From a virus (lineage: Duplodnaviria; Caudoviricetes), in IMG/VR virus record IMGVR_UViG_3300032309_000894, positions 1 through 53,813 of that record: 53,813 nucleotides of DNA. One strand, written 5' to 3'. The position numbers and the translations under genes are program-made. Shown in pieces: positions 1 to 53,813 of the stretch. Below the pieces are notes generated by a model. That model was not told the origin of the DNA and ran no database searches. It saw only the letters and a list, made by a program, of their open reading frames with translations. Within the stretch, counting starts at the first letter, position 1; each line of letters opens with the position of its first letter.

Positions 1-103
1 AGGGACAGCTCAACCTTATCTTAATCAGTCTGCAATTCAAAATATTGCAGGCGCAGCTCAACCGTATTTTCAGCGTTCTGCGTCTCAAGATATTTTAGGG
101 ACA
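1..103. repeat. Terminal overlap, identical to 53711-53813 (circular assembly junction)
   Basis: Exact 103-nt identity of first and last bases; the reading frame runs through the join. Confidence 0.95.
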
Positions 104-820
104 GCTCAACCTTATCTTAATCAAGCCGCGTCTCAAAATATTTTTGGAGCGGCTCAGCCATATCTTCAAGGATCAGCATCTCAAGACATTGTAGGTGCCG
201 GTCAACCCTATCTTAATCGAGCCGCATCTCAAGATATTGCAGGGGCAGCTCAACCGTATTTTCAACGTTCGGCGTCTCAAGATATTACAGGAGCCGCGCA
301 GCCTTATCTTAACCAAGCCGCGTCTCAAAATATTTTTGGAGCGGCTCAGCCATATCTTCAAAGTTCTGCGTCTCAAGATATTGTAGGGGCAGGTCAACCT
401 TATCTTAATCGAGCCGCATCTCAAGATATTGCAGGCGCTGCTAAATCTTATTTTGACCAAGCTGCGTCAAAAAGCGGCGTCGGTGCAGCTCAAAAATATT
501 TTGATAAGGCATTTAATCTTGACAGTGTAAAAGCCGCTGATCCTTACCTTCAACGCGCATCGAATTTGGATGTCATAGGATCAGCGCAACCCTATCTTAA
601 TCGCGCGGGGTCTTTGGACGTCATAGGGTCAGCACAGCCCTATCTTAATCGTGCCGGGTCTTTGGACGCTATAGGGTCAGCCCAACCATATCTTAATCGT
701 GCGGGGGCTTTGGATGTTATAGGGTCGGCTCAACCCTACCTCAATCGCGCAGGGTCTTTGGATGTTATGGGTGCGGCTCAGCCTTTGCTGGGTAAGGCCG
801 AAACCACCACAGCGCAATCT
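1..820 (+). repeat. 48-nt (16-aa, AAQPYLNQAASQNIxG) coding tandem array, units 10-26
   Basis: Manual translation; continues from 53283-53710. Confidence 0.95.
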
Positions 821-3067
821 CTTGCTGAACGCGCTTTGACAGCGGCAAATCCGTATTTGTCTGCTGCCGGTCAAACATCGGCATCCCAGGTCGGTCAATA
901 CATGTCGCCCTATCAGCAGGGCGTGCTGGACGTCATTGCAAAGCAAGGTGCTCGCAATTTATCCGAGAATCTGCTGCCGCAAGTCTCTGACGCCTTTATC
1001 AAAGCCGGACAATTTGGCAGTAACCGGATGGGCGAGTTTGGTTCTCGCGCTTTGCGAGATACGCAGGAAGCTGTCCTCAAAGAGCAATCCCAAGCGGCCC
1101 AGCAGGGTTACGGCCAGTCTCTCAACGCCGCCCAGGCCGATCTGGCGCGGCAGGCTCAACTGGCTGGCACCGTGGGCAGCATCAGCGGCGCAGACTTGTC
1201 GCGCGTTCTTCAGGGCGGTGCCCAGTACGGTAACCTTGGCCAGACTTCCGGTCAGCTTACCGCTCAACAGTTGCAAGCTCTTAGCAATCTGGGTCAGACG
1301 ACGGGTCAGCTTACTGCTCAGCAATTACAGGGCCTCACTAATGTCGGTCAGACAAGCGGTCAGATTACAGCTCAACAATTGCAGGCTCTTACTAATTTGG
1401 GTCAGACAACTGGTCAGCTTACAAGCCAGCAAATGCAAAATCTTAATAACATTGGTCAGACAACTGGTCAGCTTACCAGTCAGCAGATGCAAAATCTAAC
1501 TAATATTGGTCAGACTTACGGTCAACTTACCAACCAACAAATGCAAAATCTGATAAATCTCGGTACTTCAACAGGTCAGCTAACAAATCAAGAAGCACAA
1601 AATCTTATCAATATGGGTCAGTCTTCTGGTCAGTTAACTGCCCAGCAAGCTCAAACCCTTGCAAATATTGGTCAGACATCTAGCCAAATTACCGCACAGC
1701 AAGCGCAAAATCTTGCTAACTTGGGACAAACATCAGGTCAACTTACGGCTCAACAAGCGCAAAGTCTTGCTAACATTGGTCAAACATCAGGACAACTTAC
1801 CGGCCAGCAAGCCGGTGTTTTGGCAAATCTTGGGCAATCCTCCGGCCAGCTTACCGCGCAACAGGCCCAGAGCCTCGCCAATATTGGCCAAACATCTAGT
1901 CAAATCACCGCCCAACAAGCGCAAAATCTTGCCAATTTGGGGCAAACGTCCGGTCAACTTACGGCTCAGCAAGCTCAGAGTCTTGCTAACATTGGCCAGA
2001 CATCAGGCCAACTTACTGGTCAGCAGGCCGGTGTTTTAGCAAATTTGGGTCAATCGACCGGCCAGCTTACGGCTCAACAAGCACAAAATCTTGCTAATTT
2101 AGGACAAACGTCTGGACAGCTTGCTGGTCAGCAGGCCGGTGTTTTGGCGAATTTGGGTCAGTCTTCCGGTCAGCTAACTGCTCAGCAGGCTCAAAGCCTT
2201 GCTAATATTGGTCAGACATCCGGTCAGCTTACTGGTCAGCAAGCGCAAAATCTCATTAACATGGGTCAATCCACTGGCCAGCTTACCGCTCAACAAGCGC
2301 AGAGCCTTGCCAACATTGGTCAGACATCCGGGCAACTTACGGCGCAGCAGGCACAAAACCTTGCCAATGTTGGTCAGACATCTGGTCAGCTCACCGCTCA
2401 ACAAGCGCATAGCCTTACCAATATCGGCCAGACATCCGGGCAACTCACCGCTCAACAAGCGCAAAACCTCGCCAATGTTGGCCAAACCGCAGGACAGCTT
2501 ACGGGTCAGCAGGCCAATATTTTTGCAAATCTCGGTCAAACCACCGGCCAGCTAACCGGTCAGCAGATGCAATATCTGACTAATCTAGGTCAAACATCGG
2601 GCCAGCTTACTGCCCAGCAGATGCAAACTCTCGCCAACATCGGCCAGATGCAAACAAGTGCGGGTCAGGCTCAGCAACAGTATGGTTTGTCTGCGGTGCA
2701 GCAGGCCCAGGCGGCGCAAGCGCAGGACTATGTGCGTCAGATGTCGGCGTTGCAGAGTGTTGGCGATATAGCGCGCCAGGGTCAGGCGTTGCGCACGGCT
2801 GATGCGGCGGCCCTTGAGTCTGCTGGTTTGGCGCAACAAAACCTTTCCCAAAAGGTTTTTGATGCAAATCTTGCCAAATTTAACGCTGAGCAAAATTATC
2901 CTAAATCTCAGTTGGATTGGCTTAGCACCCAGGTGCGTGGTATTGCTCCCTATGTGTCGGCGGCGCAGACGCAGGCCGGAACCACCACGGGTGCCAGCTA
3001 TTCACCATCGCCGCTGTCGCAATTGGCCACGGGCATCTATACTGCCAAGGGCTTGGCTAGTATCTGA
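1..3067 (+). CDS. 3' part of a giant repeat-rich virion/ejection protein (~1295 aa; true start at 52890, crosses the junction)
   Basis: Frame open from base 2 and in frame with ORF 566..3067; 16-aa and 18-aa arrays flank a YMSPY...AGQFGSNR core; lies among the last late genes. Confidence 0.85.
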   Translation, partial: GTAQPYLNQSAIQNIAGAAQPYFQRSASQDILGTAQPYLNQAASQNIFGAAQPYLQGSASQDIVGAGQPYLNRAASQDIAGAAQPYFQRSASQDITGAAQPYLNQAASQNIFGAAQPYLQSSASQDIVGAGQPYLNRAASQDIAGAAKSYFDQAASKSGVGAAQKYFDKAFNLDSVKAADPYLQRASNLDVIGSAQPYLNRAGSLDVIGSAQPYLNRAGSLDAIGSAQPYLNRAGALDVIGSAQPYLNRAGSLDVMGAAQPLLGKAETTTAQSLAERALTAANPYLSAAGQTSASQVGQYMSPYQQGVLDVIAKQGARNLSENLLPQVSDAFIKAGQFGSNRMGEFGSRALRDTQEAVLKEQSQAAQQGYGQSLNAAQADLARQAQLAGTVGSISGADLSRVLQGGAQYGNLGQTSGQLTAQQLQALSNLGQTTGQLTAQQLQGLTNVGQTSGQITAQQLQALTNLGQTTGQLTSQQMQNLNNIGQTTGQLTSQQMQNLTNIGQTYGQLTNQQMQNLINLGTSTGQLTNQEAQNLINMGQSSGQLTAQQAQTLANIGQTSSQITAQQAQNLANLGQTSGQLTAQQAQSLANIGQTSGQLTGQQAGVLANLGQSSGQLTAQQAQSLANIGQTSSQITAQQAQNLANLGQTSGQLTAQQAQSLANIGQTSGQLTGQQAGVLANLGQSTGQLTAQQAQNLANLGQTSGQLAGQQAGVLANLGQSSGQLTAQQAQSLANIGQTSGQLTGQQAQNLINMGQSTGQLTAQQAQSLANIGQTSGQLTAQQAQNLANVGQTSGQLTAQQAHSLTNIGQTSGQLTAQQAQNLANVGQTAGQLTGQQANIFANLGQTTGQLTGQQMQYLTNLGQTSGQLTAQQMQTLANIGQMQTSAGQAQQQYGLSAVQQAQAAQAQDYVRQMSALQSVGDIARQGQALRTADAAALESAGLAQQNLSQKVFDANLAKFNAEQNYPKSQLDWLSTQVRGIAPYVSAAQTQAGTTTGASYSPSPLSQLATGIYTAKGLASI
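1232..2635 (+). repeat. 54-nt (18-aa, NxGQTSGQLTAQQAQxLA) coding tandem array, 26 units
   Basis: Counted in the ORF translation; unit 26 starts at 2582 = 1232 + 25x54. Confidence 0.95.
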
Positions 3068-3078
3068 GGAAGCTGGAT

Positions 3079-4494
3079 ATGAAATCTGATCTGTATCGGC
3101 TGAACCAGAAATATCGCGGGGCACCGACCAAAAAGTCAGCCTACGCCAAGGGTGGTTCAGTGCGCCGTCACTTTGACGGGGGCGGCCTCAATGACATGGC
3201 GATGGCGTACAACGATGGCTCCGGTCAGGCTGATCCTACTGATGGCGCTGGCGGTGATGTCGCCCCACCGGCTGCGCCTGTTGTTGTCACCCCGCAGGCA
3301 GCGCCTCCTCCGGCAGCGGCGGTCGTCACACCACAAGCAACCGTTGTCGCGCCGCAGGCATCAGCAGCACTTGATCGCACGGCGGAACTTGAGGCACTGC
3401 TCAACCGGTATGCGCCGCCATCGAACCAATACACCCAGGAACTGGCAGAATCTCGGCGCAGGGCTCAGACCGAGACCGAGGCTTTCACCCGGATGATCCA
3501 GCAAATGTCTCAGCGCAGCGAGAGCCCGACATCGCGCGCCGAGATGTACTTCCGATTGGCGGCGGCTTTCGGATCGCCCACCAAGACAGGTAAGTTTGCT
3601 GAGAACTTGTCGCTCGTCGGCAAAGAGATGAGCGAATACGCCAAGGGTCGCCGGGCGGAAGAAAGCGATATGCGTAACCTTGCCTTGAAGGCTCAGGAAA
3701 TCCGCATGACCGGTGCCCGACAGGATTTGACCACGGCGCAGGCTTTGGCCGCACAGGAAACCGGGGAACGCCGCACTCTCGCGCGCGAAGTCATCAAGGA
3801 ATATCTCGCATCGGGTCGCCCGCAATCTGATGCCGGTAAAGTGGCAGAGGATATGGGTCTCCGACAGGGCACGCCTGAGCATCGTGAATTTGTCAACAGG
3901 TACATTGAAAGCAAGCGTGAAAGCGGCGACCTGTATAAACAGGCGATGATTGAGATGCAGCGAACCGGTCTTGAGCTTCGTCAGGCGGAAGCTGCTCGCA
4001 AAGCTGAACGCGACAAAGAACTTACACCTGCCGAACAGCGCATGCGGCTCGACGCAGAAGCCACTTTGAGCGCAACCGAAAGAGCACAAAGAACTATCAA
4101 CGAAGCTCTTAGAATTAACGATAATACTTTTGGCACATCGGCATTTGACACAGCGCAATATGCAATGCGGTCAATGGCAGGGTCAAATGACCCAAAAACC
4201 GCAAATACCGCTCGTCTTCGTGTTCTGTTGGGCGAAGCGGCAATTGCCCAATTGCGCGAGTCTTTTGGTAGTCAAATTACTGACAGTGAACGTGCCGCTT
4301 TGGATAGACTTCAGGGCGCTCTTGCTTCAACTCCAGAAATTCGTCGCGGTATATTGCAAAGGACGCTGGATGAACTTGAAAGGTCGCAGGCTCGCCAACG
4401 TAGCCTTGTCCAAGACATCACCAGCGGCAGGTATCGTCAGCAGCAACCTGCCCAGGCACCCGCCCAGCCGCCTGCCCAAGGAGAAACACCATGA
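3079..4494 (+). CDS. Putative internal virion/ejection protein
   Basis: 471 aa, helical A/E/R/Q-rich; N-terminal YAKGG and FDGGG motifs; GAGGA RBS; position in the late operon. Confidence 0.6.
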   Translation: MKSDLYRLNQKYRGAPTKKSAYAKGGSVRRHFDGGGLNDMAMAYNDGSGQADPTDGAGGDVAPPAAPVVVTPQAAPPPAAAVVTPQATVVAPQASAALDRTAELEALLNRYAPPSNQYTQELAESRRRAQTETEAFTRMIQQMSQRSESPTSRAEMYFRLAAAFGSPTKTGKFAENLSLVGKEMSEYAKGRRAEESDMRNLALKAQEIRMTGARQDLTTAQALAAQETGERRTLAREVIKEYLASGRPQSDAGKVAEDMGLRQGTPEHREFVNRYIESKRESGDLYKQAMIEMQRTGLELRQAEAARKAERDKELTPAEQRMRLDAEATLSATERAQRTINEALRINDNTFGTSAFDTAQYAMRSMAGSNDPKTANTARLRVLLGEAAIAQLRESFGSQITDSERAALDRLQGALASTPEIRRGILQRTLDELERSQARQRSLVQDITSGRYRQQQPAQAPAQPPAQGETP

Positions 4495-6620
4495 GCGATA
4501 GTCTCAATTTTGCCCGCGCCCTGATTGGGCAAGGCGTTGGCATGGGATGGGGTGACGAGGCCGAGGCATGGCTGCGCTCTCGCATTACCGGTCGCCCGTA
4601 TGAGGGCGAACGTGCGCGTATCAATCAGGAATATAACCAGTTCCAACAGCGCAACCCGTATCTGGCACCTGTCGCAGAGTTTGCGGGCGGCGTGCTTCCG
4701 GCAGTCGGTGCCTACATGGCTGTGCCATTCACAGGTGGCGCGGCAGCACCCGCCGCAGCCGCTACAACGGCTCGCACTGCCGGTGCCCTGGGCACCATTG
4801 CAAACCGCATCGCGGGCAACACAGCGGCTCGGGTGGGTGCCGGTGCGGCGACTGGGGCGGCAACTGGCGTGGGCATCAACGATCAGATTGACGAAGGTAC
4901 GGCCATTGATGCTGCCGCGCTCGGCACTCTTGGGGCTGTAACCGGAGGTCAGGCCCCTCGCGTCGCGCGTATGTTGGCAACTCCTTACGGTCGAGGGGCC
5001 GTTACCGGTGCCACACAAGGCGGCATCTCTGGCGCGGGCATGGCTGAACCTGACAGCCGCGTTGAAGGTGGAACGGTTGGGGCTTCTATCGGTGCCCCCG
5101 TCGGCGCGGCTGTCCCCGCTGTTGCGAGGAATGTTGGATCGGCCTGGAGATGGCTGAGCGAACGCCTGTCCCCCACGCCTGCAACTGTTGAACGCGGTGC
5201 CGCTGATCGGATCAACCGGGCTTTGAACCAAGCGGGTCTAGAGCCGTCTGATATTTCCACACGTCTTGACGCGGATAGGGCTATGGGCGTTCCGTCTGTC
5301 GTCGCCAACGTGGACCCTCGTCTGGCCACTCTTGCTGAAACCGTCACACAACGCAGTGGCCCCAGTTCCACCACGGTTGAGCGTGCTTTGGGTGAGCAAC
5401 GGGGTGGTGCCCGCCAGCGAGTTTATGGCCAAGTGGAACAAGGTCTTGATCCTGGCGACTTTTTTAACGATGAACAAAAACTTGTTAACACCATGCGCGC
5501 TCGCGCTGCACCAGCATATCAAGAAGCGTATCGTGTTGGCGAAGTGTTTGATCCGCAAATCACAAGTCTGTTGGAACTTCCACAATACCGGAGCGCTTGG
5601 AATACTGCCCGTGAGCTTGCGGCAGAAGATGCATCAAAAGCGCAAATTCAATCTATTCGTACAGGCTCGGCTTTTGATCCTGAAGAATTCAGGTTGCGCG
5701 AAATCTATCGTGTCACCGGCAAAGACCCCGATACAGGTGCGGACATTCTTGAGCTTGCTCAAACGGTACCTGACGTCCGCACGCTTGACTATATGAAACG
5801 GGCGCTTGATGCTCAACTTACCGCAGCCCTCACATCTGACAATCCTGTTGTTCGCGCTTCCATTTCTGCTTTGCGCGAACGTCGTAACGCCTTACGGGAT
5901 CGCACCAAAGAACTTGTGCCTGAATACCGCCGTGCGGTTGATGAATTTGCCAGTGATGCTAGTGTTTTAGATGCTATGCGTTCAGGCATGGACGATTTTG
6001 GTCGCCTTAAGCATGAAGAAATCGGTAGGCTTTTTGGCAACGGGCCAGGGGCTTTGAATGCTTCTGAACGTGAAGCGTTCCGCACGGGCGCGGCTCGCAA
6101 CATCTACAGCACGATCATGACCCCATCTGGAAACCCCAACATGGCGGATCGCCTTATTGGGTCGCCTGAAACCCGGCAGAAGCTCGAGGCCATGTTTGAC
6201 AGTCCGGCTCAATTTGATCTGTTTAGGGCGGCTCTTGAGCGCGAATCGCAGCTTTTCCAACAATCCAACCGCATTCTTGGAAATTCTGCCAGCGTTCGTC
6301 GCGCGTACAACGCCGCAGAATTTGAAGGCGGCGCTGATGTTGGAGAAGCAATGGCCGATGCTGCCCGTGGTAGCTGGGGGCGTTCTCTTACCAACATGGC
6401 GTTGCGGGCTTTTCGTGGAGGTGCCGACACCGATCAGATTGCTGAACGCACGGCCCGAATGCTCATGTCAAGCGATCCGGCAGAAGTGGCAGCGGCTGTC
6501 AGGGTGCTGGAAAACGCTTCTGAGAGGGCCGCACAAGGCGAGCGCCGCCTTGGCATGGGTGAGGCAGGGGTCATCGGCGGAACGGCTACAGGCGTCATCC
6601 CAGAGCCGTATACGGAGTAG
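4491..6620 (+). CDS. Putative DNA transfer/ejection protein
   Basis: 709 aa; Gly/Ala-rich hydrophobic segments followed by a helical domain; last late gene; ATGA overlap with the upstream gene. Confidence 0.6.
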   Translation: MSDSLNFARALIGQGVGMGWGDEAEAWLRSRITGRPYEGERARINQEYNQFQQRNPYLAPVAEFAGGVLPAVGAYMAVPFTGGAAAPAAAATTARTAGALGTIANRIAGNTAARVGAGAATGAATGVGINDQIDEGTAIDAAALGTLGAVTGGQAPRVARMLATPYGRGAVTGATQGGISGAGMAEPDSRVEGGTVGASIGAPVGAAVPAVARNVGSAWRWLSERLSPTPATVERGAADRINRALNQAGLEPSDISTRLDADRAMGVPSVVANVDPRLATLAETVTQRSGPSSTTVERALGEQRGGARQRVYGQVEQGLDPGDFFNDEQKLVNTMRARAAPAYQEAYRVGEVFDPQITSLLELPQYRSAWNTARELAAEDASKAQIQSIRTGSAFDPEEFRLREIYRVTGKDPDTGADILELAQTVPDVRTLDYMKRALDAQLTAALTSDNPVVRASISALRERRNALRDRTKELVPEYRRAVDEFASDASVLDAMRSGMDDFGRLKHEEIGRLFGNGPGALNASEREAFRTGAARNIYSTIMTPSGNPNMADRLIGSPETRQKLEAMFDSPAQFDLFRAALERESQLFQQSNRILGNSASVRRAYNAAEFEGGADVGEAMADAARGSWGRSLTNMALRAFRGGADTDQIAERTARMLMSSDPAEVAAAVRVLENASERAAQGERRLGMGEAGVIGGTATGVIPEPYTE

Positions 6621-6622
6621 GC

Positions 6623-7084
6623 TTACCGCTGCGTCTCGTAGAGCCACCGCGCCATCAACAGGGCTTCGGCGCGATCCGCGTGTTTCTTCAGATTGAGGGG
6701 TGCTGAAGGAAACATGCGGATCGCCAGGGCACGGCTCATCTCTTTGTCTGACGGCAGCTTAAAATGCTTCTTCCAGGCCGCTGGCGTGACGTAAGTCATG
6801 CCGATACCCATTGTGGCTACAACCGCCCGAGCGGCTCCAAAACTGTCGCCCAGGCTAAACGTCGATGAGGCACCCTGCTTGGGCATCGAGTTGACTCGCT
6901 CGATCACGCATAGCGCATGATAGTCACGAAGAATTGCAGAGAGACCTGCCGGGTCCACTTCATTCTTCACACTGCCCGAGCCTTTTGACACCGTGGGCAT
7001 ATCGAAGACAGCGTGAAACTCGCCGTTTTCGAGCACGCCCACGGCACCGGTCAGGCCCGGATCAATTCCAATTGTCAGCATCAT
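6623..7084 (-). CDS. ruvC: RuvC-like Holliday junction resolvase
   Basis: IGIDPG, VIE, PAAWK and DRAEA motifs. Confidence 0.85.
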   Translation of the reverse strand: MMLTIGIDPGLTGAVGVLENGEFHAVFDMPTVSKGSGSVKNEVDPAGLSAILRDYHALCVIERVNSMPKQGASSTFSLGDSFGAARAVVATMGIGMTYVTPAAWKKHFKLPSDKEMSRALAIRMFPSAPLNLKKHADRAEALLMARWLYETQR

Positions 7085-7917
7085 AGGGCCTCGTGATGTT
7101 CACAGCCCTGGCGTTGCTCATCCAGGGTCAGGGTGAAGCTGTTCAGGTTGCAAACCCACTTGCCTTCGGCACCCGGCGAACACATGGCGCAGGTACGGCA
7201 ATGATGCAGAGGCAGGGCTTCCTTGGTGCAGACCGCCTTCATGCTGCAAAACTTGCAGCCGAACGACGACGCATCATCGCTGATGCCTGCCGGGCGCAAC
7301 TGAGCCTCGACCAGCTTGCCGATCTTGGTTTGCAGCTTCGCCTGGGAGGCTTTGTCTTCCTTGACGCGCTCGACATAAAACTGCTCGTCGTCCTTGCAGA
7401 GGGCCACATACAGCGCCCGGGTGAATCCCCCCAGAGCCATGCTGATCTGCACCTGAGCATAGTGCAGCGGCTTGGCGTCCCTGACACCCTTCTTCAGTAG
7501 GCCGTCGAAGCTCTTTTTATTGTGGGTCTTAATCTCCAGTAGGTGCGGCTTATCGCTCTCTGGGACGTTTTTCACCACACCGTCGACCTTTGTGATGAAA
7601 TGCCCGGTCTGGTCGACAAACTCGAATTGCCGACCGTCCTCGCGCTTGTCCCAGACGGCAAACCCTGCCCGGCGCAGATCGGCCACGATCCGCTCCTCTT
7701 GCAGGTGCCCCGTCTCAAATAGGCGAAGCATGCGCCCTTCAAACTGGCCACGGGCGAAACCTCGCCACTCGAGCCAGATTTGACGGAGGCACTCCTCGCC
7801 TATGAAAGAGGAACCAAGCCGCCCCAGGTACAGGTCAGGGTTGACCTTTTCCTTCTCAATTGCCGCATAGATGCGGTTTACGATCTGCTGCTCAGGAGGG
7901 GGCGGGATGGCTACCAT
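7081..7917 (-). CDS. Cas4-like PD-(D/E)xK exonuclease
   Basis: VDG...LEIK...Q nuclease motif; one N-terminal Cys plus CKFC-x5-C; additional C-terminal Cys cluster. Confidence 0.75.
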   Translation of the reverse strand: MVAIPPPPEQQIVNRIYAAIEKEKVNPDLYLGRLGSSFIGEECLRQIWLEWRGFARGQFEGRMLRLFETGHLQEERIVADLRRAGFAVWDKREDGRQFEFVDQTGHFITKVDGVVKNVPESDKPHLLEIKTHNKKSFDGLLKKGVRDAKPLHYAQVQISMALGGFTRALYVALCKDDEQFYVERVKEDKASQAKLQTKIGKLVEAQLRPAGISDDASSFGCKFCSMKAVCTKEALPLHHCRTCAMCSPGAEGKWVCNLNSFTLTLDEQRQGCEHHEAL

Positions 7918-7920
7918 GGA

Positions 7921-8415: not shown

Positions 8416-8430
8416 TGTCGTATTCCTTTC

Positions 8431-9171: not shown

Positions 9172-9189
9172 TGTGTTATCCTTTCGTTG

Positions 9190-9540
9190 TCAGTTTTCGG
9201 TTTCGCCAAAGTCAAAGCTCAACTGGCGGAAATCCCATTCCTGTTTCAGATATTGGAATGTCTCGCGGTCCCAGCTAAGCACGTTCACCTGATCATACTC
9301 TTCGGTGACCAGGGTCATACAGACAGCGCATAGCGTCGGGTCTCCGATCATCAGCAGGTAGTCGCCCGGCTTCCAATCTCGGAGCACTCGCTTTGCGCGG
9401 TCTATCATCGCACTCGTATCGTAGGGCTTGCGCGGGTTGTTAAACACCGCTCGCAAATTCCCGAAACGACGAGCATCTGAGAAATCTTTGTTTTTGTCGG
9501 CCTGGATCACAAAGACCGTCTTACTGTTTGGGTTTTCCAT
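9190..9540 (-). CDS. Small alpha/beta protein, function unknown
   Basis: 116 aa; GDYLLMIGDP; overlaps the polymerase stop. Confidence 0.6.
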   Translation of the reverse strand: MENPNSKTVFVIQADKNKDFSDARRFGNLRAVFNNPRKPYDTSAMIDRAKRVLRDWKPGDYLLMIGDPTLCAVCMTLVTEEYDQVNVLSWDRETFQYLKQEWDFRQLSFDFGETEN

Positions 9541-11365: not shown

Positions 11366-11392
11366 TCTCAGTTATCCATTGCGGTCTACAGG

Positions 11393-29151: not shown

Positions 29152-30918
29152 ATGGCTGAGCGCAACGAAATCCCGAACCGCATGACGGCTCTCGGCTTGC
29201 TCGAGCAGATGCGCCGCCGGGCCAGTGCGAACCGCGAGCCCGAGTTCAACCCGATCAACGCAACCCTGCGCGGTCAACGCCAGCCACCCTTGCCGATCCC
29301 GCCGCGCCCACCTGCCGTAATACCCCCGCCACCGCCCCAGCAGGCCGCGCCACAGGCCCGTGGGCAGGCTCAGGCGCTACCGGTGCCACCTGTTCCCCCG
29401 GCGGTTATTCCGCAGCAAGAAGGTGCGCCTGCGAGGCCAATCGCTGAGAGGTTCAATCCGCAAAACCCACATGTGGCGACCGCCATCGAAATGGCCGAAC
29501 GGTATGGTTTGCCGCGCAATGTGTTCCTGTCACTGGTGCAGCAAGAAAGCCGCTTCGATCCGAACGCGGTAAGCCGTGCCGGTGCATTGGGGCTCGGGCA
29601 GTTGATGCCCGGTACGGCGCGCGACCTGGGCGTTGATCCCACGAATCCCACACAGAACCTTGAGGGCAGCGCACGCTACCTGCGCCAGCAGCTGGACCGG
29701 TTTGGCGGTGACATGCCGCTGGCCCTGGCGGCGTATAACGCAGGGCCGCGCCGGGTAATTGAAGCGGGCAATGCTATTCCCGACAACGCCGAGACGCAGG
29801 CGTATGTGCCGAGCGTGATGCGCCGCGCTGGCGTTCCCGGTTACGCTGAAGGCGGCCCGGTGGACGCAATACCGGTACACGAGATAAACGTGGTGGCAAC
29901 CCGCCTTCCGCGTCGTCGCGCACCGCGCCCGGCCCCGCGCGAGGAACTGACGGCAGACCAACTGAATGCCATGGTGCTGGACAGGCTTGCCGCGCGTTAT
30001 GACGTGGCTCCTGAATCCATCATGGCCGCTGAAGCCCGTGACCGCATTGGTCGGGCCATGGGTTACGCTGAGGGTGGCCGCGTCATGAGTGACGAAGAGT
30101 ATGACCGCCGCCTGCTCGAGCGCATGAAGCGCGACACGGGCCGCACCACCGAGTCAACCAATGCCGAGCAGGCTCGGGCTCTACGCAGCGCGGGCTATGA
30201 CGCGGCCCAGTTGGCGTCGGACATCTTTCTGCCGCAGAGCCCTCTGGATGCGGCCCTGATGGTGGCCCTGGGGCCGGGGGGTCGTATGGCCCGGCTGGCA
30301 GGTTCGACGGCTTTGATGGCGATGGAGCCGAGCGAAGCGGAAGCTGGTGGGCTGCGTCGGTTGGGAACGCGATTTGTTCGGAGAAGCAAATCTTTTGATT
30401 CGCCCTTCAACAGAGACGCTGAACATATCGCAATGTTTGCGGAAACCAAAAATCCAAGAGAAACTTTGGGTCAGTTGAGGAGTTATGGACCTGCTGCTTG
30501 GATTTCGCGTGGAGACGACGCGGTAGATGTTAGGGATATTCAACCCGACATTGTTCGCGCATTGCGAAATTCTAGACGTCATGAAGATTATAACACAACC
30601 GCTGCGACATTAGCTCGATTAGCTAACCCAGAAAACATTGTAGACAGCGCGGGCATGTGGGATGACCCCCAACTGGTTCGTGAAGTGTACGAAAACGTTA
30701 TACAACCCCGAGAGATTACGTCAGTGCGTACCAATGACGGTCTTTTGGTGTTTGATCCTGTTAACGTCAGGCCAATTCGTACTGAGTACTCCCACGGCGG
30801 CCTCGCCCAGCTTCATCACAAATACGCCGAGGGTGGCGCGGTCAGTGCTCAACCTGCTATCTATGATCCCGACGCGGTAAACACGCTCGCCAATCAAATC
30901 GAGGCTGGATATGTCTGA
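29152..30918 (+). CDS. Multidomain protein with SLT lytic transglycosylase domain
   Basis: QESRF, GALGLGQLMP, ALAAYNAG, ETQAYV; YAEGG x3. Confidence 0.85.
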   Translation: MAERNEIPNRMTALGLLEQMRRRASANREPEFNPINATLRGQRQPPLPIPPRPPAVIPPPPPQQAAPQARGQAQALPVPPVPPAVIPQQEGAPARPIAERFNPQNPHVATAIEMAERYGLPRNVFLSLVQQESRFDPNAVSRAGALGLGQLMPGTARDLGVDPTNPTQNLEGSARYLRQQLDRFGGDMPLALAAYNAGPRRVIEAGNAIPDNAETQAYVPSVMRRAGVPGYAEGGPVDAIPVHEINVVATRLPRRRAPRPAPREELTADQLNAMVLDRLAARYDVAPESIMAAEARDRIGRAMGYAEGGRVMSDEEYDRRLLERMKRDTGRTTESTNAEQARALRSAGYDAAQLASDIFLPQSPLDAALMVALGPGGRMARLAGSTALMAMEPSEAEAGGLRRLGTRFVRRSKSFDSPFNRDAEHIAMFAETKNPRETLGQLRSYGPAAWISRGDDAVDVRDIQPDIVRALRNSRRHEDYNTTAATLARLANPENIVDSAGMWDDPQLVREVYENVIQPREITSVRTNDGLLVFDPVNVRPIRTEYSHGGLAQLHHKYAEGGAVSAQPAIYDPDAVNTLANQIEAGYV

Positions 30919-47484: not shown

Positions 47485-48815
47485 CCATTTATCAAGACGT
47501 CTTCGGCGGCGCGAATATCTACCCGAGCGAAATCAGCTACAGCGCAATCGCGCTCAGCGTTGATGTGGTTCTTAGCTGGCCGGAAGAGACTTCCGCGAGC
47601 GAGAACCTCGCCACGAAAATCATCGACGTTACGCCGTCTGCTGCCGGGTTCAGCATCTTCCTGCCCGCCGCCAACAAGACCGGCGTCGGTAACACGATCC
47701 TGTTCAACAACCGTGGTTCCGACACTTTCACGGTTAAAAATTCCGTTGGGACGCAGGTCGTCACGGTGGCCGCAGGCACGCTGTGGCAAGTCTATCTTTC
47801 CGATAACTCGACCGCTGCGGGCGTTTGGCGCTCTTTGCAGTATGGTGCGGCGACTTCCATCGCAAATGCCAGCGCCCTGGCCGGGACCGGCATCGTGGCT
47901 GTCGGCACGCTGCTCAGCCAATCGGTTCCCGTCACCACCTTCAACACCAATTACACGGCGGGCGTTACCGACCGCGCCAAGATGTTCAACTGGACATCTG
48001 CGGGTGGCACTTTCACGCTGCCCGACCCCACGGTGGTCGGCAATAACTGGTTCGTCTATCTGCGGAACAGCGGCACGGGTGCGATTGTCGCAGACCCGCC
48101 CGGCCTTATCACGATCAATGGTGCCCTGTTCCTTTCGTTCCAGCCCGGCGAATCCGCAATCATCGCCTCTGACGGTTCAAATTTCTTCACCATTGGCTTC
48201 GGCCAGTCGGCCACCTTCGCGTTCGATTACACGGTTATCAACATCCCGGGCACGGGCACCTACACTCTCACGGGTTCGGAACTGAACCGTGTGGCGTATC
48301 GTTTTACCGGAACTCTTACCGGAAATCGCACTGTCGTGGTGCCCGCTACCGTGCAGCAGTATTGGGTCGATAACCAAACTACAGGGGCATACACGCTTAC
48401 TATTTCGCCGTCTGGTGGCGGAACCGGTTTTAGCATTACGCAAGGTTCTCGAGCAATTTTGTATTGCGATGGGACCGATATTCTTAACGCCTCGACACAA
48501 GGCGTTTCATTTCCATTATCCGTTGCACAAGGTGGTACTGGCGCAACCACCGCCAGCGCCGCTCGTATCAACTTAGGAGGCACTGCCACAGGCATTGCCT
48601 TGTTCACCGCAGCAGATCAGTCAACGGCCCAGTCAGCACTTGGTGGCACAGCAACGGGTATATCCGTATTTACTGCGGCAAATCAGTCAGCGGCCCAATC
48701 AGCACTAGGCGGCACAACCACTGGCATTGCGTTGTTCACGGCTGCAAATCAAGCTGCCGCATGGACCGCCCTTGGCGTGGCGCAATCCGGTAACATCAAT
48801 GGCGGCACATTCTAA
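47481..48815 (+). CDS. Tail structural protein
   Basis: Beta-rich; three 22-aa LGGTATGI..FTAA.Q repeats; ends NINGGTF. Confidence 0.65.
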   Translation: MTIYQDVFGGANIYPSEISYSAIALSVDVVLSWPEETSASENLATKIIDVTPSAAGFSIFLPAANKTGVGNTILFNNRGSDTFTVKNSVGTQVVTVAAGTLWQVYLSDNSTAAGVWRSLQYGAATSIANASALAGTGIVAVGTLLSQSVPVTTFNTNYTAGVTDRAKMFNWTSAGGTFTLPDPTVVGNNWFVYLRNSGTGAIVADPPGLITINGALFLSFQPGESAIIASDGSNFFTIGFGQSATFAFDYTVINIPGTGTYTLTGSELNRVAYRFTGTLTGNRTVVVPATVQQYWVDNQTTGAYTLTISPSGGGTGFSITQGSRAILYCDGTDILNASTQGVSFPLSVAQGGTGATTASAARINLGGTATGIALFTAADQSTAQSALGGTATGISVFTAANQSAAQSALGGTTTGIALFTAANQAAAWTALGVAQSGNINGGTF

Positions 48816-50653
48816 TGCCAGTAACCACGGTCGTTCTAAAATCCAACGCGGGCATCAAGCGCGACGGAACAAAATTTGAGGGCGACTTCTACGTTGACGG
48901 TCAGTGGGTGCGCTGGCAGCGCGCGTTGCCTCGTAAGATGGGCGGCTATCGCTCGACGCAAAAATACCTGCAAGAGATCAGCCGGGGCTTTTCGACCTTC
49001 ACGCAACAGAATTTTGTCTATTGCCACTCGGGTGGCGCAACCACGCTAGATCGTTTCACGATTGATGCGACTGGCAATAGTTCGATTGTGACCGACCGGA
49101 CGCCCATCGCTGTGGCTGCTACAGGCACAGTGACGCTGACGGGCGGCGCGGCTGGGTCGGTTAACATGATCACGGTTGACGGCGTGAATATCATGTCTGG
49201 GGTGGTGGCTTTTGGCGTTGATCTTGCGACCACGGCAACCGCTGTCGCCGCCAACATCAACGCTTACAGTTCCTCACCGGAGTACACCGCTGTCGCTGTT
49301 GGGCCGGTCATTACGATCAGCGCCGCCATCGGTGCTGGTTCTGACCCCAATGGTTTTGCTGTGACGGTCTCAGCAACCATAATCACATTCACAAAAACCG
49401 ATATGTTTGGCGGTTCGTTTGCGCTGACCAATTCAGCACGCAACATGTGGATGTTCGACTATCAATATGATTCATCCACCAACCAGAACTATCTGATTTC
49501 CCATGTCGCACCCAACGAGCGTTGCATTTGCAATGACGAGGGCGGTCAAATCTTCTTCGGTGAGGTGCTCGGAACCGGCGATCTGAAGTCGATCAGCTTG
49601 CCGCCGGATGCCAATGCTACGGGCGGCATCGTCTCCCTACACCCATACCTTTTCTACTACGGTACGGACGGCATCATCGGCTGGTCGGTGCCGGGCGAGC
49701 CCACCAACTTGACAGGCAGCGGATCGGGCTTGGCGCGCGTCTGGGGCCAGAAGATCATCAAAGGCTTCCCACTGCGTGCCGGTTCTGGCACCGCCCCTGC
49801 GGGCATCTTCTGGGCGTTTGACGCCGTACTGCGCGCCACGTTCACCGGGGGCGCGACGGTCTTCCAGTTCGACGTCATCGCCACCGACACCTCGATCATG
49901 TCGCCGCAGTGCGTCGTGGATTATGACGGCGTGTTTTTCTGGTGCGGCGTTGACCGGTTCATGATGTTCAACGGTGTGGTGCGCGAAGTGCCAAACCAGA
50001 TGAATCTGAATTGGTTCTTTGATGGTTTGAACCAGAACCAGCGCAGTCGGGTGTTTGCCTTCAAAATTCCGCGCTTCGGTGAGGTGTGGTGGTGCTATCC
50101 GCGCGGCGACGCCACCGAATGCACCCATGCTGTGATCTACAACGTGCGCGAAAATTGCTGGTACGACACCGAATTGCCCAATTATGGTCGTTCTGCCGGG
50201 CAATTCAATAACTCGTTTGCCGCCCCGATCCTGACGGGCGTCGAAGACACCGGGTCGGGATACCGGGTCTGGGTGCATGAGCAACTAACCGACGAATATG
50301 ATGGCCCGAACATCCGCCCCATCCTTTCGTATTTTGAGACGGCTGACATCTCACAACTGGTGCAGGGTAAAAACGAATATATCCGCATCACCGCGATTGA
50401 GCCTGACTTTGTTCAAAGCGGCCCGATGACGGTGCAGGTGACGGGTCGAGCGAATGCCCGCGCGCCCGAAGTCTACAGCACGCAGTTTGAGTTTCCTGAA
50501 ACTGCCGGGATGCCGTTCGAGCAGATCGTCATGTTGAAGGAACAACGCCGCGAGCTTCGCGTGCGGTTTGAGAGCAACGCGGTCTATGGTGACTATCAGA
50601 TGGGCCAGATCATCGGCCACATGAGCAGTGGCGATAAGACGGTGCTTGGATGA
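48815..50653 (+). CDS. Tail nozzle/DNA stabilization protein (P22 gp10-like role)
   Basis: 612 aa, beta-rich; GIKRDGT, EVWWCYP, VIYN..E..W; position in the tail module. Confidence 0.65.
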   Translation: MPVTTVVLKSNAGIKRDGTKFEGDFYVDGQWVRWQRALPRKMGGYRSTQKYLQEISRGFSTFTQQNFVYCHSGGATTLDRFTIDATGNSSIVTDRTPIAVAATGTVTLTGGAAGSVNMITVDGVNIMSGVVAFGVDLATTATAVAANINAYSSSPEYTAVAVGPVITISAAIGAGSDPNGFAVTVSATIITFTKTDMFGGSFALTNSARNMWMFDYQYDSSTNQNYLISHVAPNERCICNDEGGQIFFGEVLGTGDLKSISLPPDANATGGIVSLHPYLFYYGTDGIIGWSVPGEPTNLTGSGSGLARVWGQKIIKGFPLRAGSGTAPAGIFWAFDAVLRATFTGGATVFQFDVIATDTSIMSPQCVVDYDGVFFWCGVDRFMMFNGVVREVPNQMNLNWFFDGLNQNQRSRVFAFKIPRFGEVWWCYPRGDATECTHAVIYNVRENCWYDTELPNYGRSAGQFNNSFAAPILTGVEDTGSGYRVWVHEQLTDEYDGPNIRPILSYFETADISQLVQGKNEYIRITAIEPDFVQSGPMTVQVTGRANARAPEVYSTQFEFPETAGMPFEQIVMLKEQRRELRVRFESNAVYGDYQMGQIIGHMSSGDKTVLG

Positions 50654-50889: not shown

Positions 50890-52890
50890 ATGTCGATGCG
50901 CGAACAAATCATGCAGATCGCCCAAAGCGATCCGAAATTCGCCCAGGCGGTGGACGCCATGGAGCGCGCCGTCATCAATATGCCAATCATGCCAGACGAT
51001 CTGGATGAGGGTATTGAGACACTTGAAAAGATTATCAAAAATCCTAACAAGTACGCAGAAATCAGGTCAAAGGCCATTGCCGATGACATGGTCGATGAAG
51101 AGATGCTGCCCGAGCAGTACGACCAAGTTTATATCGTGTCACTGCTCATCGCCCTGTATGGCCTGCAAGATCGCATTTCCAAAAAGGGTTACGCCCGGGG
51201 TGGCTTGACCGTTGCTGCCCGGCAATTGGCCGCGCAGGGTCGAGGCGGCGATACTGAACTGGCACACGTCAACCCGCGCGAAGCGGCGATGCTTCGTCGT
51301 GCTGGTGGTTCGGGAACGATCAACCCAAACACCGGACTTCGTGAATACAAAAGCTGGATTAAGAAAATAAAGTGGGGCAAGGTTTTGGCGGCGGTTGCGC
51401 CCATCGCCCTTAGCTTTATCCCCGGCATTGGCACGGCTATCGGTGGATTTTTGAGCGCGGGGCTGCTTTCAGGCACGGCGGCTAGTGCTTTGGGCGGCGC
51501 GGCTATCGGTGCGGCAGCATCCGCAATCGGTGGCGGTAATCCGCTAGTCGGAGCAGTGACCGGTGGTATTGGTGGCGGTCTCGGTGATGTTTTGGGCGGT
51601 GGCATCAACAGTGCACTTGGCTTGGGTCTATCAGATAGCACTGCCAGTCTTCTTGGCGGTGCGGCGGCTGGTGCCGGTGCTTCCGCACTCCAAGGCCGCG
51701 ATCCGATTACCGGTGCCATTACAGGCGCTGTTGGTGCGGGCATTAGCGGGATGGGCGGTCTTGGGATTGAAAACCCTGACATAAGCCGGGTGGTGGCGGG
51801 AGCCACACGAGGTTTTGGTAATGCCCTTACTGCCGGGCAATCGCCTTCAGAGGCTTTAACGGCTGGCGGTCTTAGCGGTCTTGGTGGTCTTGCTAGTGGG
51901 TTCTTAGGCGCGAACCCGATGGGTTTGCCGACATTAACTTCAACCAGTTTCCTGCCTGGCACCAATGCAATTCCCACGCCTAATGCACTTGCAGCCGCTG
52001 ATGCGTCGGGCAGTGCTGATTCTACGGGTGGCGCGGGCGCGGATACCACCAGTAGTCCGTTAACTCAAATTGCTGATGCAGCAGCTACACAACCCGGCAC
52101 AACCCCGGCAACCGAGGTGGCCGCCGCGCCTGGAACAACACCAGCGTACAATATAGGGGATTATGGTGGAGGCCTCGGGCCAACTACACTTACGGGTGTC
52201 CCGGGCCTAAGCGGTTTGGCTGAAAATCCAAACAACATGGCGACCTATGGTGAAAGTGTTGGGCAAGCAACGCCTCCGGCTTATCGTGACGCCGACGGTT
52301 ACCCTCTTTCTGACACTCTTCCACCCAACCCTCCTGGTGAAGGTAGCACCCTGGGTCGTCTGGCTCCGCTTCTTGCGGGCGGCGCGGCTATTGCGGCATT
52401 GTCTGGCATGGGCTCGTCTAAAACCGCCCCTGCCAACGTGCAGCGAGCGGTTGGAAGTCTACCCGCCAATCAGCAGGCATATATTAACCGCCCGGGTATC
52501 ACATGGGATTGGGACAAACTCTCGGCAGATGCGGCGAGCAGCAACCTCACGCTCGATCAGTATATGGCGCGGAACTGGAACCGAGTTACCAGCGGTGAAT
52601 ATAACAGAGCCCCGGCAATGGCGCAGGGCGGCCTGAATGCTATGTCTCGCTTCGTGCGGGGCGGCGGCACCGGGCGCTCTGATGAAATTGATGCCAAACT
52701 CTCTGATGGCGAGTATGTTATCGACGCTGAAACCGTTGCCATGCTCGGTGATGGATCGAGCAAGGCTGGTGCTAAACGGTTGGATGAAATGCGAGCGTCA
52801 ATCCGCAAACACAAAGGCAAAACCCTAGCCCGAGGTAAATTCAGCCCGGATGCTAAATCGCCGCTCACCTATTTGAAGGGAATTGCCTGA
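50890..52890 (+). CDS. Putative ejection protein with glycine-zipper region
   Basis: YARGG + DTELAH..NPNTGLREY domain; long Gly/Ala hydrophobic tract; MAQGG + SDEI.AKLSDGEYV domain. Confidence 0.65.
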   Translation: MSMREQIMQIAQSDPKFAQAVDAMERAVINMPIMPDDLDEGIETLEKIIKNPNKYAEIRSKAIADDMVDEEMLPEQYDQVYIVSLLIALYGLQDRISKKGYARGGLTVAARQLAAQGRGGDTELAHVNPREAAMLRRAGGSGTINPNTGLREYKSWIKKIKWGKVLAAVAPIALSFIPGIGTAIGGFLSAGLLSGTAASALGGAAIGAAASAIGGGNPLVGAVTGGIGGGLGDVLGGGINSALGLGLSDSTASLLGGAAAGAGASALQGRDPITGAITGAVGAGISGMGGLGIENPDISRVVAGATRGFGNALTAGQSPSEALTAGGLSGLGGLASGFLGANPMGLPTLTSTSFLPGTNAIPTPNALAAADASGSADSTGGAGADTTSSPLTQIADAAATQPGTTPATEVAAAPGTTPAYNIGDYGGGLGPTTLTGVPGLSGLAENPNNMATYGESVGQATPPAYRDADGYPLSDTLPPNPPGEGSTLGRLAPLLAGGAAIAALSGMGSSKTAPANVQRAVGSLPANQQAYINRPGITWDWDKLSADAASSNLTLDQYMARNWNRVTSGEYNRAPAMAQGGLNAMSRFVRGGGTGRSDEIDAKLSDGEYVIDAETVAMLGDGSSKAGAKRLDEMRASIRKHKGKTLARGKFSPDAKSPLTYLKGIA

Positions 52891-53813
52891 TGGCTAGTCT
52901 GTTTGAGGGCACGCCGCAAACCGCAACCTCTTACGTCACGACGACATCTGAACTGCCAAAATGGCAGCAGGATGCGCTGTATAATCAGGTTCAATGGGCT
53001 ACTAATACAGCTAACCGACCCTATACACCTTATACAGAACCAACGGTTGCATACTTTGCCCCGCAGCAGATGCAGGCGTACGACCTCGTAAACAAGAACG
53101 TCGGCGCGTGGCAGCCCGACATGAATTATGCCACTGCTGGCATGAAAGACTTTTCCGGTAGGGGAACGGCAGAACAACTGCAAGCCGGGCAGGCTCCTTA
53201 CCTTCGGCCAGATTTGGTCGGTTCAAACCTCGGTGCTGGGCAGTCATTATACAACCAAGCCGCCGGAATGGATATTTCAGGGTCTGCACAACCTTATTTA
53301 CAGCGGGCTGGGTCTCAAGATCTTTTGGGATCAGCCCAACCGTATATTGGTCAAGCCGCCTCTCAAAACCTCATGGGGGCCGCGCAACCTTATCTCAACC
53401 AAGCCGCATCGCAAAATATTACAGGGGCAGCGCAGCCTTATCTCAACCAAGCCGCATCGCAAAATATTACAGGAGCCGCGCAACCTTATCTTAATCAAGC
53501 TGCGTCTCAAAATATTACAGGGGCGGCGCAGCCTTATCTCAATCAAGCCGCGTCTCAAAATTTTGTAGGAGCGGCCCAGCCTTATTATCAACGTGCCGAA
53601 TCTCAAAATATTGCAGGTGCGGCTCAACCTTATCTTGATCGAGCCGCGTCGCAAGATATTACAGGTGCCGCTCAGCCTTATTTTCAACGATCTGCGTCTC
53701 AAGATATTTTAGGGACAGCTCAACCTTATCTTAATCAGTCTGCAATTCAAAATATTGCAGGCGCAGCTCAACCGTATTTTCAGCGTTCTGCGTCTCAAGA
53801 TATTTTAGGGACA
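52890..53813 (+). CDS. 5' part of the giant repeat protein (MASLFEGTPQ...), continues at base 104
   Basis: TGATG coupling to the upstream gene; open to the window end; missing from the ORF track. Confidence 0.85.
   Translation, partial: MASLFEGTPQTATSYVTTTSELPKWQQDALYNQVQWATNTANRPYTPYTEPTVAYFAPQQMQAYDLVNKNVGAWQPDMNYATAGMKDFSGRGTAEQLQAGQAPYLRPDLVGSNLGAGQSLYNQAAGMDISGSAQPYLQRAGSQDLLGSAQPYIGQAASQNLMGAAQPYLNQAASQNITGAAQPYLNQAASQNITGAAQPYLNQAASQNITGAAQPYLNQAASQNFVGAAQPYYQRAESQNIAGAAQPYLDRAASQDITGAAQPYFQRSASQDILGTAQPYLNQSAIQNIAGAAQPYFQRSASQDILGT
53283..53813 (+). repeat. 48-nt (16-aa) coding tandem array, units 1-11
   Basis: Manual translation. Confidence 0.95.
53711..53813. repeat. Terminal overlap, identical to 1-103
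   Basis: Exact match. Confidence 0.95.

Follow-up and report, generated by a model that had tools for sequence, protein, structure and literature searches.

A phage protein with two non-homologous repeat arms of matched length, a candidate antiparallel hairpin for genome delivery

A stretch of 53,813 nucleotides (nt) from a tailed virus (Duplodnaviria; Caudoviricetes; IMG/VR record IMGVR_UViG_3300032309_000894), analysed at its full length and hereafter called the window, encodes a protein in which 26 units of a 16-amino-acid (aa) repeat and 26 units of an unrelated 18-aa repeat lie on either side of a core segment. A preliminary description of this DNA, made from its letters alone, had claimed that the two arrays are matched unit by unit, that the chain folds back so that unit n faces unit n, and that any change in its length would require paired insertions or deletions (indels) in two non-homologous DNA arrays. 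The questions raised by this locus are whether the two arrays are coupled in this way and what a protein of such a design might do in a phage. An antiparallel helical hairpin with unit-to-unit pairing and paired indels is strongly supported by the comparative evidence and is very probably the architecture of this protein, hereafter called the hairpin protein.

Arm lengths in the family of the hairpin protein

Joining positions 52890–53710 to 1–3067 gives a single open frame of 1,295 aa, which comprises, in order, an N-terminal domain (N-domain; aa 1–98), two degenerate 16-aa units, the array of 26 16-aa units (aa 132–547), the core (aa 548–685), the array of 26 18-aa units (aa 686–1153), and a C-terminal region (aa 1154–1295). 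Units were cut in a fixed register and numbered outward from the core, and the count obtained in this way agrees with the two arrays of 26 units around a ~135-aa core given in the preliminary description; the frame adopted here for the 18-aa array is shifted by one codon from the earlier one. The nucleotide coordinates of all segments are listed in Table 1.

The family defined by the core gave 228 matches in a word-indexed search and 1,099 cluster representatives at E ≤ 0.001 in an exhaustive search. Hidden Markov models (HMMs) were built for the N-domain, the core, and the C-terminal domain (C-domain), and the arms were measured in the 240 proteins containing all three, the N-arm being the segment from the end of the N-domain to the start of the core and the C-arm that from the end of the core to the start of the C-domain. 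Arm lengths (N-arm, C-arm) range from (−14, −8) to (460, 521) aa, the window protein being the longest, and the lengths of the two arms are tightly correlated (Pearson r = 0.99); the same coefficient, with a slope of 1.05, was obtained for 120 representatives of 50%-identity clusters. This outcome is the opposite of the uncorrelated copy numbers in homologues that the preliminary description had named as the result that would speak against coupled arrays. In 32 proteins, >100 extra residues are present past the C-domain, and the arms are nevertheless matched.

Close relatives of the window protein fall on a lattice in which N = 44 + 16k and C = 53 + 18k, with k = 0–8, 10, 14, and 26; part of the constant 44 aa is the distal N-arm segment containing the two degenerate units. 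The IMG/VR loci (80 collected, 77 of which yielded both arm lengths) follow the same lattice up to k = 10. Among relatives with a core identity of at least 95%, k is 2 (L007), 4 (L008), 5 (P0001), 7 (P0003), 8 (L004), and 10 (L005). The value rises to 14 in a separate genome, G001, in which the gene is split across two overlapping contig ends (see below), and to 26 in the window.

A tree was built from the three domains only, with the arms excluded, and contains 85 sister pairs; in 57 of them, the sisters are separated by a difference of ≥6 aa in an arm. In 49 of these 57, the two arms had lengthened or shortened together, typically by 16n and 18n, and pairs with one arm longer and the other shorter were absent; the contrasts in arm length between sisters are correlated with r = 0.94. 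The claim of paired length changes in two non-homologous arrays is thus borne out by the correlation across the family, by the 16:18 lattice, and by the sister pairs (49 vs 0). Other subfamilies show matched periods of 59:61, 39:43, 32:36, and 18:18, indicating that the constraint is family-wide and not tied to one repeat type. Together, these data provide a structural rule for a large uncharacterised family that has no Pfam entry.

The arms consist of quite different repeats in P0136, P0114, P0103, P0057, P0018, and P0027, with periods of 59:61, 39:43, and 18:18. The presence of different repeats in other branches indicates that paired arrays arose more than once.

The sister pairs that changed in one arm only (P0038/P0056, P0080/P0081, P0096/P0099, L009/L011, P0076/P0079, P0021/P0025, P0022/P0026, and P0064/P0066) all have a summed branch length of ≤0.025, and they represent either short-lived mismatched variants or short-read repeat collapses. 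Their confinement to near-identical sequences suggests that one-arm changes arise but do not persist. Two different tandem arrays co-evolving, with mismatches only among the closest relatives, make compensatory indel evolution measurable in this family.

Unit register, residue covariation, and the circular junction

The register of individual units was followed through marker pairs. The AADPY unit lies opposite the GQTYGQ unit at position (3,3) in P0001, P0003, and L004, at (4,4) in L005 and G001, and at (6,6) in the window, and in each of these the KYFDKA unit lies opposite the NQEAQNLIN unit one step farther out. The three outermost pairs are identical in L004 (pairs 6–8), L005 (8–10), G001 (12–14), and the window (24–26), and pairs 9–11 of G001 are the same as pairs 19–21 of the window. 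Marker units thus remain opposite their partners at k = 5, 7, 8, 10, 14, and 26, indicating that new units were inserted at mirror positions, close to the core as well as in mid-arm.

Residues covary in this same register. When position 6 of the N-unit and position 4 of the C-unit (N6/C4) were compared in 104 unique unit pairs from 32 proteins, L/T was found 68 times, F/S 15 times, M/T 10 times, I/T four times, and Y/S once, and neither F/T nor L/S occurred among them. The mutual information between the two positions is 0.63 at antiparallel register 0 and ≤0.27 at other shifts and in the parallel orientation. With the window excluded (31 proteins and 83 unique pairs), antiparallel register 0 gives 72 non-aromatic/non-Ser pairs, 11 aromatic/Ser pairs, and no discordant pair (Fisher p = 6e-14, a value that overstates independence, as the 11 pairs trace to about three unit lineages); in the same 31 proteins, discordant pairs are present at every other shift and orientation. 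A compensatory case is provided by the QRSASQD-type unit, in which Ile lies opposite Thr in G001 (unit 8) and Phe opposite Ser in the window. Unit n facing unit n with large–small compensation, as proposed earlier, is supported by the marker register together with this difference between the window and G001.

Inside the window protein, the mirror pattern reported in the preliminary description was recovered in all its elements. Phe or Tyr occupies position 6 (after the Tyr) in N-units 7, 8, 12, 16, 18, and 20, Ser occupies position 4 in the C-units of the same numbers, the AGQPY N-units and the SSQI C-units are both units 9 and 13, and the 4-unit blocks 9–12 and 13–16 are duplicated in both arrays. 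Over the 192 nt of the block, the two N-array copies show 19 nucleotide and 3 aa differences; over the 216 nt of the block in the C-array, the corresponding values are 35 and 2. The duplicates are old and not artefacts. Among 52 circular shifts and orientations, the aromatic/Ser match is complete (6/6) solely at antiparallel shift 0, with the runner-up reaching 4. In an unbiased scan of 288 column pairs, the maximum mutual information was not significant (271 of 2,000 permutations reached the observed maximum), the summed mutual information in the window is about equally high at a few other shifts, and unit similarity matrices compared by a Mantel-type procedure agree best near antiparallel shifts 0 and −1, with parallel shift +5 being similar. 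The Mantel-type and mutual-information scans in the window are not specific and were rejected as proof. Taken alone, the in-window pattern is suggestive and not decisive once all choices are counted, and the relatives settle the matter, as the match is replicated in 31 other proteins.

The first 103 bases of the window are identical to its last 103 bases, indicating that the record is a 53,710-bp circle with an arbitrary break inside a gene. The overlap is not an internal repeat, because the longest exact DNA repeat inside the hairpin gene is only 48 nt. The record is classified in IMG/VR as a virus with direct terminal repeats, and its CheckV completeness is 100%; the ‘direct terminal repeat’ is probably an overlap left by circularisation of the assembly and not a physical genome end. 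An independent Logan contig from run X1 (20,658 nt), whose sample may be the source of the window, reproduces positions 406–3200 of the window with one base differing, and positions 1–405 are covered in Logan by short contigs only.

In both the window and G001, the 14+14 relative, the contig ends fall within the repeat arrays of the hairpin gene, with an exact end overlap of 103 nt in the former and one of 183 nt, containing a single mismatch, in the latter. An 899-nt contig from another sample of the same study (run X3), belonging to a ~90%-identical relative, skips exactly 108 nt (2351–2458 of the window). As this skip in the C-arm equals two 18-aa units, unit-number variants co-occur within the same study.

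Predicted fold and comparison with known helical hairpins

An AlphaFold2 model of the arm-less homologue P0254 (43-row alignment) is all-helical, with a mean predicted local distance difference test score (pLDDT) of 74 and scores of 85–91 in the helices of the N-domain region. A helix of residues 93–134 is followed by a loop of residues 135–142 and a single 113-residue helix of residues 143–255. The invariant Gly residues of the core sit in this loop, and the helix-loop-helix arrangement suggests that the core is the hairpin turn. When this minimal-homologue model was compared with the PDB by Foldseek, 0 matches were obtained at E ≤ 0.001; the weak top matches are all antiparallel helical hairpins (best E = 0.044), namely a chemoreceptor cytoplasmic domain, SMC arm fragments, EnvC, and RipA, which indicate the fold class only. 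PDB sequence and profile searches with P0254 and alignment A1 returned chance-level matches only (E ~0.5). Pfam searches of the window protein gave a DUF3106 score of 39.5 bits (cut-off, 24.3), with the match lying wholly inside the Q/A-rich 18-aa array, and Bactofilin and TerB scores under their cut-offs. All three matches were judged compositional, and no Pfam family was matched by homologues with few repeats.

The co-variation, the register, and the family size given above are observations; the helical pairing geometry described here is a model. The N- and C-domains would lie together at one end of the molecule, and the conserved core would form the turn at the other. The C-arm would most likely be a long helix of 18-aa units, each with five helical turns, carrying one hydrophobic stripe; on a helical wheel, L1, L8, and L16 of the 18-mer consensus would line up to form it, and the covarying position 4 would be adjacent. 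The N-arm would most likely be a chain of short 16-aa amphipathic helices punctuated by Gly and Pro, and the 16-mer, with Gly at one end and Pro at position 4, appears to fit one short amphipathic helix per unit. Each of these helices would dock on one C-arm unit, which would place unit n against unit n, with N-unit position 6 beside C-unit position 4 (Leu with Thr, and Phe or Tyr with Ser). The hairpin would then lengthen by one unit per arm at mirror positions.

The principle is known from chemoreceptors and SMC proteins, and the implementation and the family are new: two non-homologous tandem arrays of different period expand one for one, by 0 to 26 steps among close relatives, in a large phage family without a Pfam entry. 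No description of the family, nor of paired repeat arrays in a phage protein, was found in the open-access texts searched. The 16:18 pairing could also serve as a building block in protein design, as a modular antiparallel rod extendable by one unit pair at a time.

Chemoreceptors (MCP classes 24H–44H) likewise possess a long antiparallel helical hairpin with a highly conserved tip and symmetric arm indels, and the chemoreceptor hairpin 2ch7_A was the top, but weak, fold match of the minimal homologue. Length changes of the MCP hairpin by symmetric indels in both arms are described in PMC5907407, which cites Alexander and Zhulin. The two proteins are unrelated in sequence, and, unlike the MCPs, which are membrane receptors, the hairpin protein is a putative component of the phage virion. 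In MCPs, an indel comprises one heptad, and the two arms gain or lose heptads of like kind, whereas the arms of the hairpin protein are non-homologous arrays of 16 and 18 aa (59:61 and 39:43 elsewhere in the family), which expand by up to 26 steps among near-identical relatives.

In SMC, Rad50, and MukB, the N- and C-terminal helices also pair intramolecularly and antiparallel, so that the lengths of the arms must match, and SMC arm fragments (5nnv and 5xg2) were among the weak fold matches (E = 0.3–0.6). SMC arms are not known to consist of tandem repeats, and their length is conserved and not rapidly variable. Unlike the hairpin protein, SMC proteins have an ATPase head and a hinge at the ends of their arms, and there is no homology between them.

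The DNA-pilot tube of phiX174 H consists of long alpha-helices rich in amide side chains, as in the Gln/Asn-rich 18-aa unit, which contains about five Gln and one Asn and whose length equals 7 + 11 residues. The H protein has 7- and 11-residue motifs. In the H tube, ten helices run parallel as a barrel whose length is fixed, whereas the hairpin protein would be an antiparallel hairpin. The interior of the tube is described as being lined mainly by amide and guanidinium groups (PMC7354561).

Genome context, role in the virion, and rival explanations

The structural module closes with the nozzle-like, 666-aa, hairpin, 471-aa, and 709-aa genes in this order (Table 1), and the four-gene block from the ~600-aa gene on is conserved in Caulobacter phage RW and in the IMG/VR loci. 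No tail tube, sheath, or tape-measure families were found among the 32 open reading frames (ORFs) scanned. The lengths of the neighbouring genes in the IMG/VR loci do not scale with k, and the idea of a co-varying partner gene was dropped for this reason.

The minimal homologues P0254, P0149, and P0133 match phrog_4287, ‘DNA ejection protein’, over profile positions 3–312 of 392 (E = 1.3e-14, 2.8e-13, and 1.7e-11, respectively), and the same family is matched by gp065c of Caulobacter phage RW, a protein of 333 aa that is nearly devoid of arms (E = 1.6e-9), and gp33 of Roseobacter phage CRP-901 (E = 1.4e-4). On the window protein, the match covers the C-terminal part only (2639–3067; E = 5e-6), and direct hmmscan of the 1,021-aa frame of the window returned no family, a miss that is probably explained by the arms interrupting the profile. 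Among the 32 relatives with C-terminal extensions, seven match the downstream 471-aa protein, namely P0173 (the best, E = 9e-43, full length), P0158, P0148, P0175, P0207, P0166, and P0182, and two carry an SLT transglycosylase extension (Pfam SLT) matching the 588-aa protein, namely P0203 (E = 3e-22) and P0207 (E = 3e-20); P0207 thus carries both. These fusions indicate a functional link among genes that are encoded separately in the window. No fibre or S74 Pfam domain was detected in the 32 extended relatives scanned.

The terminase of the window shares 42% identity with its counterpart in CRP-901, whose gp33 has the N- and C-domains and occupies the same gene position as the hairpin gene of the window. 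The structural genes of CRP-901 are described as resembling those of HTVC023P-type pelagiphages (PMC10149686), isolates of which have a podovirus-like morphology and represent, according to the same report, the most abundant known marine viral group (bioRxiv 10.1101/2019.12.14.876532). Members of the family occur in podophages of aquatic origin with relationships to the CRP-901 and HTVC023P groups. The PHROG label, the gene position, the fusions, and the podovirus-like relatives point to the genome-delivery apparatus of a short-tailed phage. On the first three of these grounds, the DNA ejection conduit suggested in the preliminary description is plausible as a putative function. We put the probability of the whole explanation, i.e. 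a hairpin with co-expanding arms that is the longest member of a podophage virion family serving genome delivery, at about 0.6. Within it, the more specific proposal that the protein belongs to the podophage genome-delivery machinery encoded after the nozzle gene, as an ejected internal protein helping to bridge the envelope, falls somewhat short of an even chance.

The podophage ejection proteins (T7 gp14, gp15, and gp16; P22 gp7, gp20, and gp16) resemble the hairpin protein in being large and mostly helical and in having genes that follow those of the tail. After ejection, they reassemble as a conduit through the envelope; the hairpin gene follows a nozzle-like gene, with some relatives carrying SLT fusions. 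T7 gp15 is reported to form a slender tunnel about 200 Å long, and gp16 to carry a transglycosylase (PMC8954989). No sequence or profile similarity to these proteins and no PDB chain match was found, and P22 gp7, gp20, and gp16 match phrog_598, 917, and 770, not 4287. Repeat-based length variation in ejection proteins was not found in the open-access literature searched. An Atlas lead to P22_gp7 scored 0.88, under the trust level, and was not relied on; the other Atlas matches are phage clusters.

The number of units would set the reach of the protein, which would amount to roughly 2.7 nm per unit and about 70 nm for 26 units provided that the C-arm is helical. A bolder and rather doubtful extension is a length-programmable injection device, in which a two-helix hairpin would pass the tail channel folded and its reach would be tuned to the host envelope and surface layers in steps of ~2.7 nm, from almost nothing to ~70–95 nm. 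It is an equally tentative part of the same proposal that one-arm variants would arise constantly and then either be eliminated or have their match restored by the mirror-image change in the other array; if this were true, the locus would offer one of the few observable examples of two DNA arrays evolving by compensatory indels. The near-identical proteins with 2, 4, 5, 7, 8, 10, 14, and 26 unit pairs form a natural series for testing the effect of length in a genome-delivery part.

Several observations count against the hairpin in genome delivery, as a whole or in part. About 9 of 239 proteins (window excluded) deviate by >20 aa from the fitted line, two of the 77 IMG/VR loci (L009 and L055) are off the lattice, and 8 of the 57 sister pairs changed in one arm only. 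The aromatic/Ser pairs represent about four or five unit lineages overall, not dozens of independent events. The AlphaFold2 model of the 5+5 relative P0001 (alignment A2) has a mean pLDDT of 52.7, with the arms below 50, no solved structure matches the family in PDB sequence and profile searches, and an intramolecular hairpin and antiparallel pairing between subunits both fit the data. PHROG 4287 is the only database label of the family, and the provenance of this label is unclear, no experiment on any member having been found in the literature searched; hhalign of alignment A1 against P22 gp20 gave a probability of 0.25%, i.e. the two are not related. BFVD contains distant structural relatives whose names, in some cases, refer to tail-fibre or S74 chaperone domains. 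A rod of roughly 70–95 nm would exceed the likely inner diameter of a 54-kb capsid and could not lie straight in it, and the range of k from 2 to 26 among close relatives with unchanged neighbours is odd for a part spanning a fixed periplasm.

Some of these points are better accommodated if the same hairpin is an external needle-like plug or central fibre on the tail axis, with its core in the nozzle or portal channel and its termini toward the host, so that unit number would set the reach of the tip through surface layers. This explanation ranks second to an ejected internal protein and, even if unlikely, is a serious rival. The hairpin gene comes just after the nozzle-like gene, and the P22 tail needle gene is likewise found between gene 10 (‘head closure Hc3’) and the ejection genes. 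The product of the needle gene, gp26, is a thin helical rod encoded between the tail hub and the ejection genes, like the hairpin protein; most of it is a parallel trimeric coiled coil, and, unlike the hairpin protein, it has 233 aa and lacks paired repeat arrays. The P22 needle is described as making the first contact with the outer membrane (PMC3741392). Names pointing to fibres occur among the BFVD relatives (intramolecular chaperone S74 at ranks 6, 13, and 20, and tail fibre domain at ranks 17 and 45) and in the homologue of Ochrobactrum phage OH, annotated as ‘tail fiber domain-containing protein’, whereas the sole family label is ‘DNA ejection protein’ and a fibre or S74 Pfam domain is present in 0/32 extended relatives, in which only SLT (2/32) and fusions to the downstream protein (7/32) were recognised. 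The core is the most conserved part of the protein, which fits contact with a conserved virion partner, wide length differences, seen here between close relatives (k = 2 to 26), are frequent in host-contact structures, and a rod on the outside would be free of any capsid size limit; the window, however, has separate tail-fibre-like genes at three positions.

It is improbable that the arms are not packed together at all and that each is instead matched to a common external length or to a third periodic partner. Arm–arm contacts are shown by no model, and the summed mutual information in the window, about as high at some other shifts, would suit such a shared ruler. Orthologous markers nevertheless stay exactly opposite each other despite insertions on either side, which a shared length alone does not predict, the aromatic/Ser rule holds at antiparallel register 0 only, no neighbouring gene changes length with k, and the minimal homologue was modelled as a helix-loop-helix at the core.

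A tape measure protein setting the length of the tail or of an internal structure during assembly, one of the roles offered in the preliminary description, is very improbable and was not upheld. In its favour, the hairpin protein has a long helical repeat architecture that varies in length by discrete steps, it shares with tape measures a long helical chain and the translation of a length change into a physical dimension, and the upstream 666-aa protein weakly matches tape-measure PHROGs (see below). A folded-back chain halves the length obtained per residue, unlike known tape measures. The tape measure is a single extended chain of long-tailed phages, whereas the phage of the hairpin protein appears to be short-tailed, as suggested by its nozzle-like gene and by the podovirus-like HTVC023P-type isolates (bioRxiv 10.1101/2019.12.14.876532). 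No tape-measure Pfam or PHROG family matches the hairpin protein, tube and sheath families were not found among the 32 scanned ORFs, and the neighbouring genes are constant as k changes.

A mirror match produced by chance together with an assembly error at the repeat-embedded junction is highly improbable, in spite of the location of the junction inside the N-arm array, the post hoc choice of the feature pair, and the non-significant unbiased scan in the window, given the 48-nt limit of exact repeats in the gene, the Logan contig reproducing positions 406–3200, the register kept by units 18 and 20 past the junction, the replication of the rule in 31 other proteins and a separate 14+14 genome, and the 49-to-0 outcome in the sister pairs.

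Table 1. Segments of the hairpin gene and other features of the window (positions refer to the 53,813-nt window)
Feature	Position	Strand	Evidence or remark
Gene start and N-domain (aa 1–98)	52890..53183	+	ORF; N-domain HMM matches 242/265 family proteins
Invariant distal N-arm segment, two degenerate 16-aa units	53184..53282	+	Present at every k; unit tables
N-arm array part 1, outer 16-aa units (26 down to about 18), ending at the circular junction	53283..53710	+	
N-arm array part 2, remaining 16-aa units to unit 1 beside the core	1..820	+	406–820 confirmed by Logan contig
Conserved core (aa 548–685), predicted hairpin turn (helix, Gly-rich GQFGS loop, helix)	821..1234	+	
C-arm array, 26 units of 18 aa	1235..2638	+	Whole array reproduced by the 20,658-nt Logan contig
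Invariant distal C-arm segment, C-domain, and stop codon	2639..3067	+	C-domain HMM matches 255/265 proteins
471-aa protein, directly downstream	3079..4494	+	Homologue fused to the hairpin protein in some relatives
709-aa protein, last gene of the structural block	4491..6620	+	phrog_5880, E = 2e-61, function unknown
Terminase	27149		
588-aa protein with lytic transglycosylase domain	29152..30918	+	PHROG lytic and transglycosylase families
Portal	30911		
Capsid-like gene	36377		
Tail-fibre-like genes	40625, 43256, 47481		
Endolysin	45726–46403		phrog_7, E = 2.5e-62
Tail nozzle-like protein, 612 aa, two genes upstream	48815..50653	+	PDB 9nwi_Y, E = 7e-15; 8zkk_O ‘nozzle gp16’, E = 5e-9; phrog_3287
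Gly-rich protein, 666 aa, directly upstream	50890..52890	+	Synteny conserved; about 600–690 aa in relatives
Terminal overlap	53711..53813	none	Identical to 1–103; circular assembly; count once

PDB searches with the 709-, 471-, and 666-aa neighbours of the hairpin protein returned nothing, and megablast of positions 3000–23000 of the window against the phage collection gave no match. In tblastn searches with P0254 and P0018, only four Caulobacter ‘Riverwalk’ phages and Ochrobactrum phage OH were found. The 666-aa protein contains long Gly/Ala-rich, weakly hydrophobic stretches, and weak matches to four tape-measure PHROGs (best E = 8e-5) are confined to its residues 557–622. For the 612-aa protein, the top PDB match, 9nwi_Y, was deposited as ‘Capsid and scaffold protein’, and the next matches are named ‘nozzle’; the molecule name of 9nwi_Y may be a labelling quirk of the entry. 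The endolysin gene lies inside the structural module, between a tail-fibre assembly gene and the block ending in the hairpin gene. The replication genes are on the opposite strand, and among them is a gene for a phosphoadenosine phosphosulfate reductase-like protein (19895–20662, minus strand; phrog_424, E = 1e-35), which may be an auxiliary metabolic gene.

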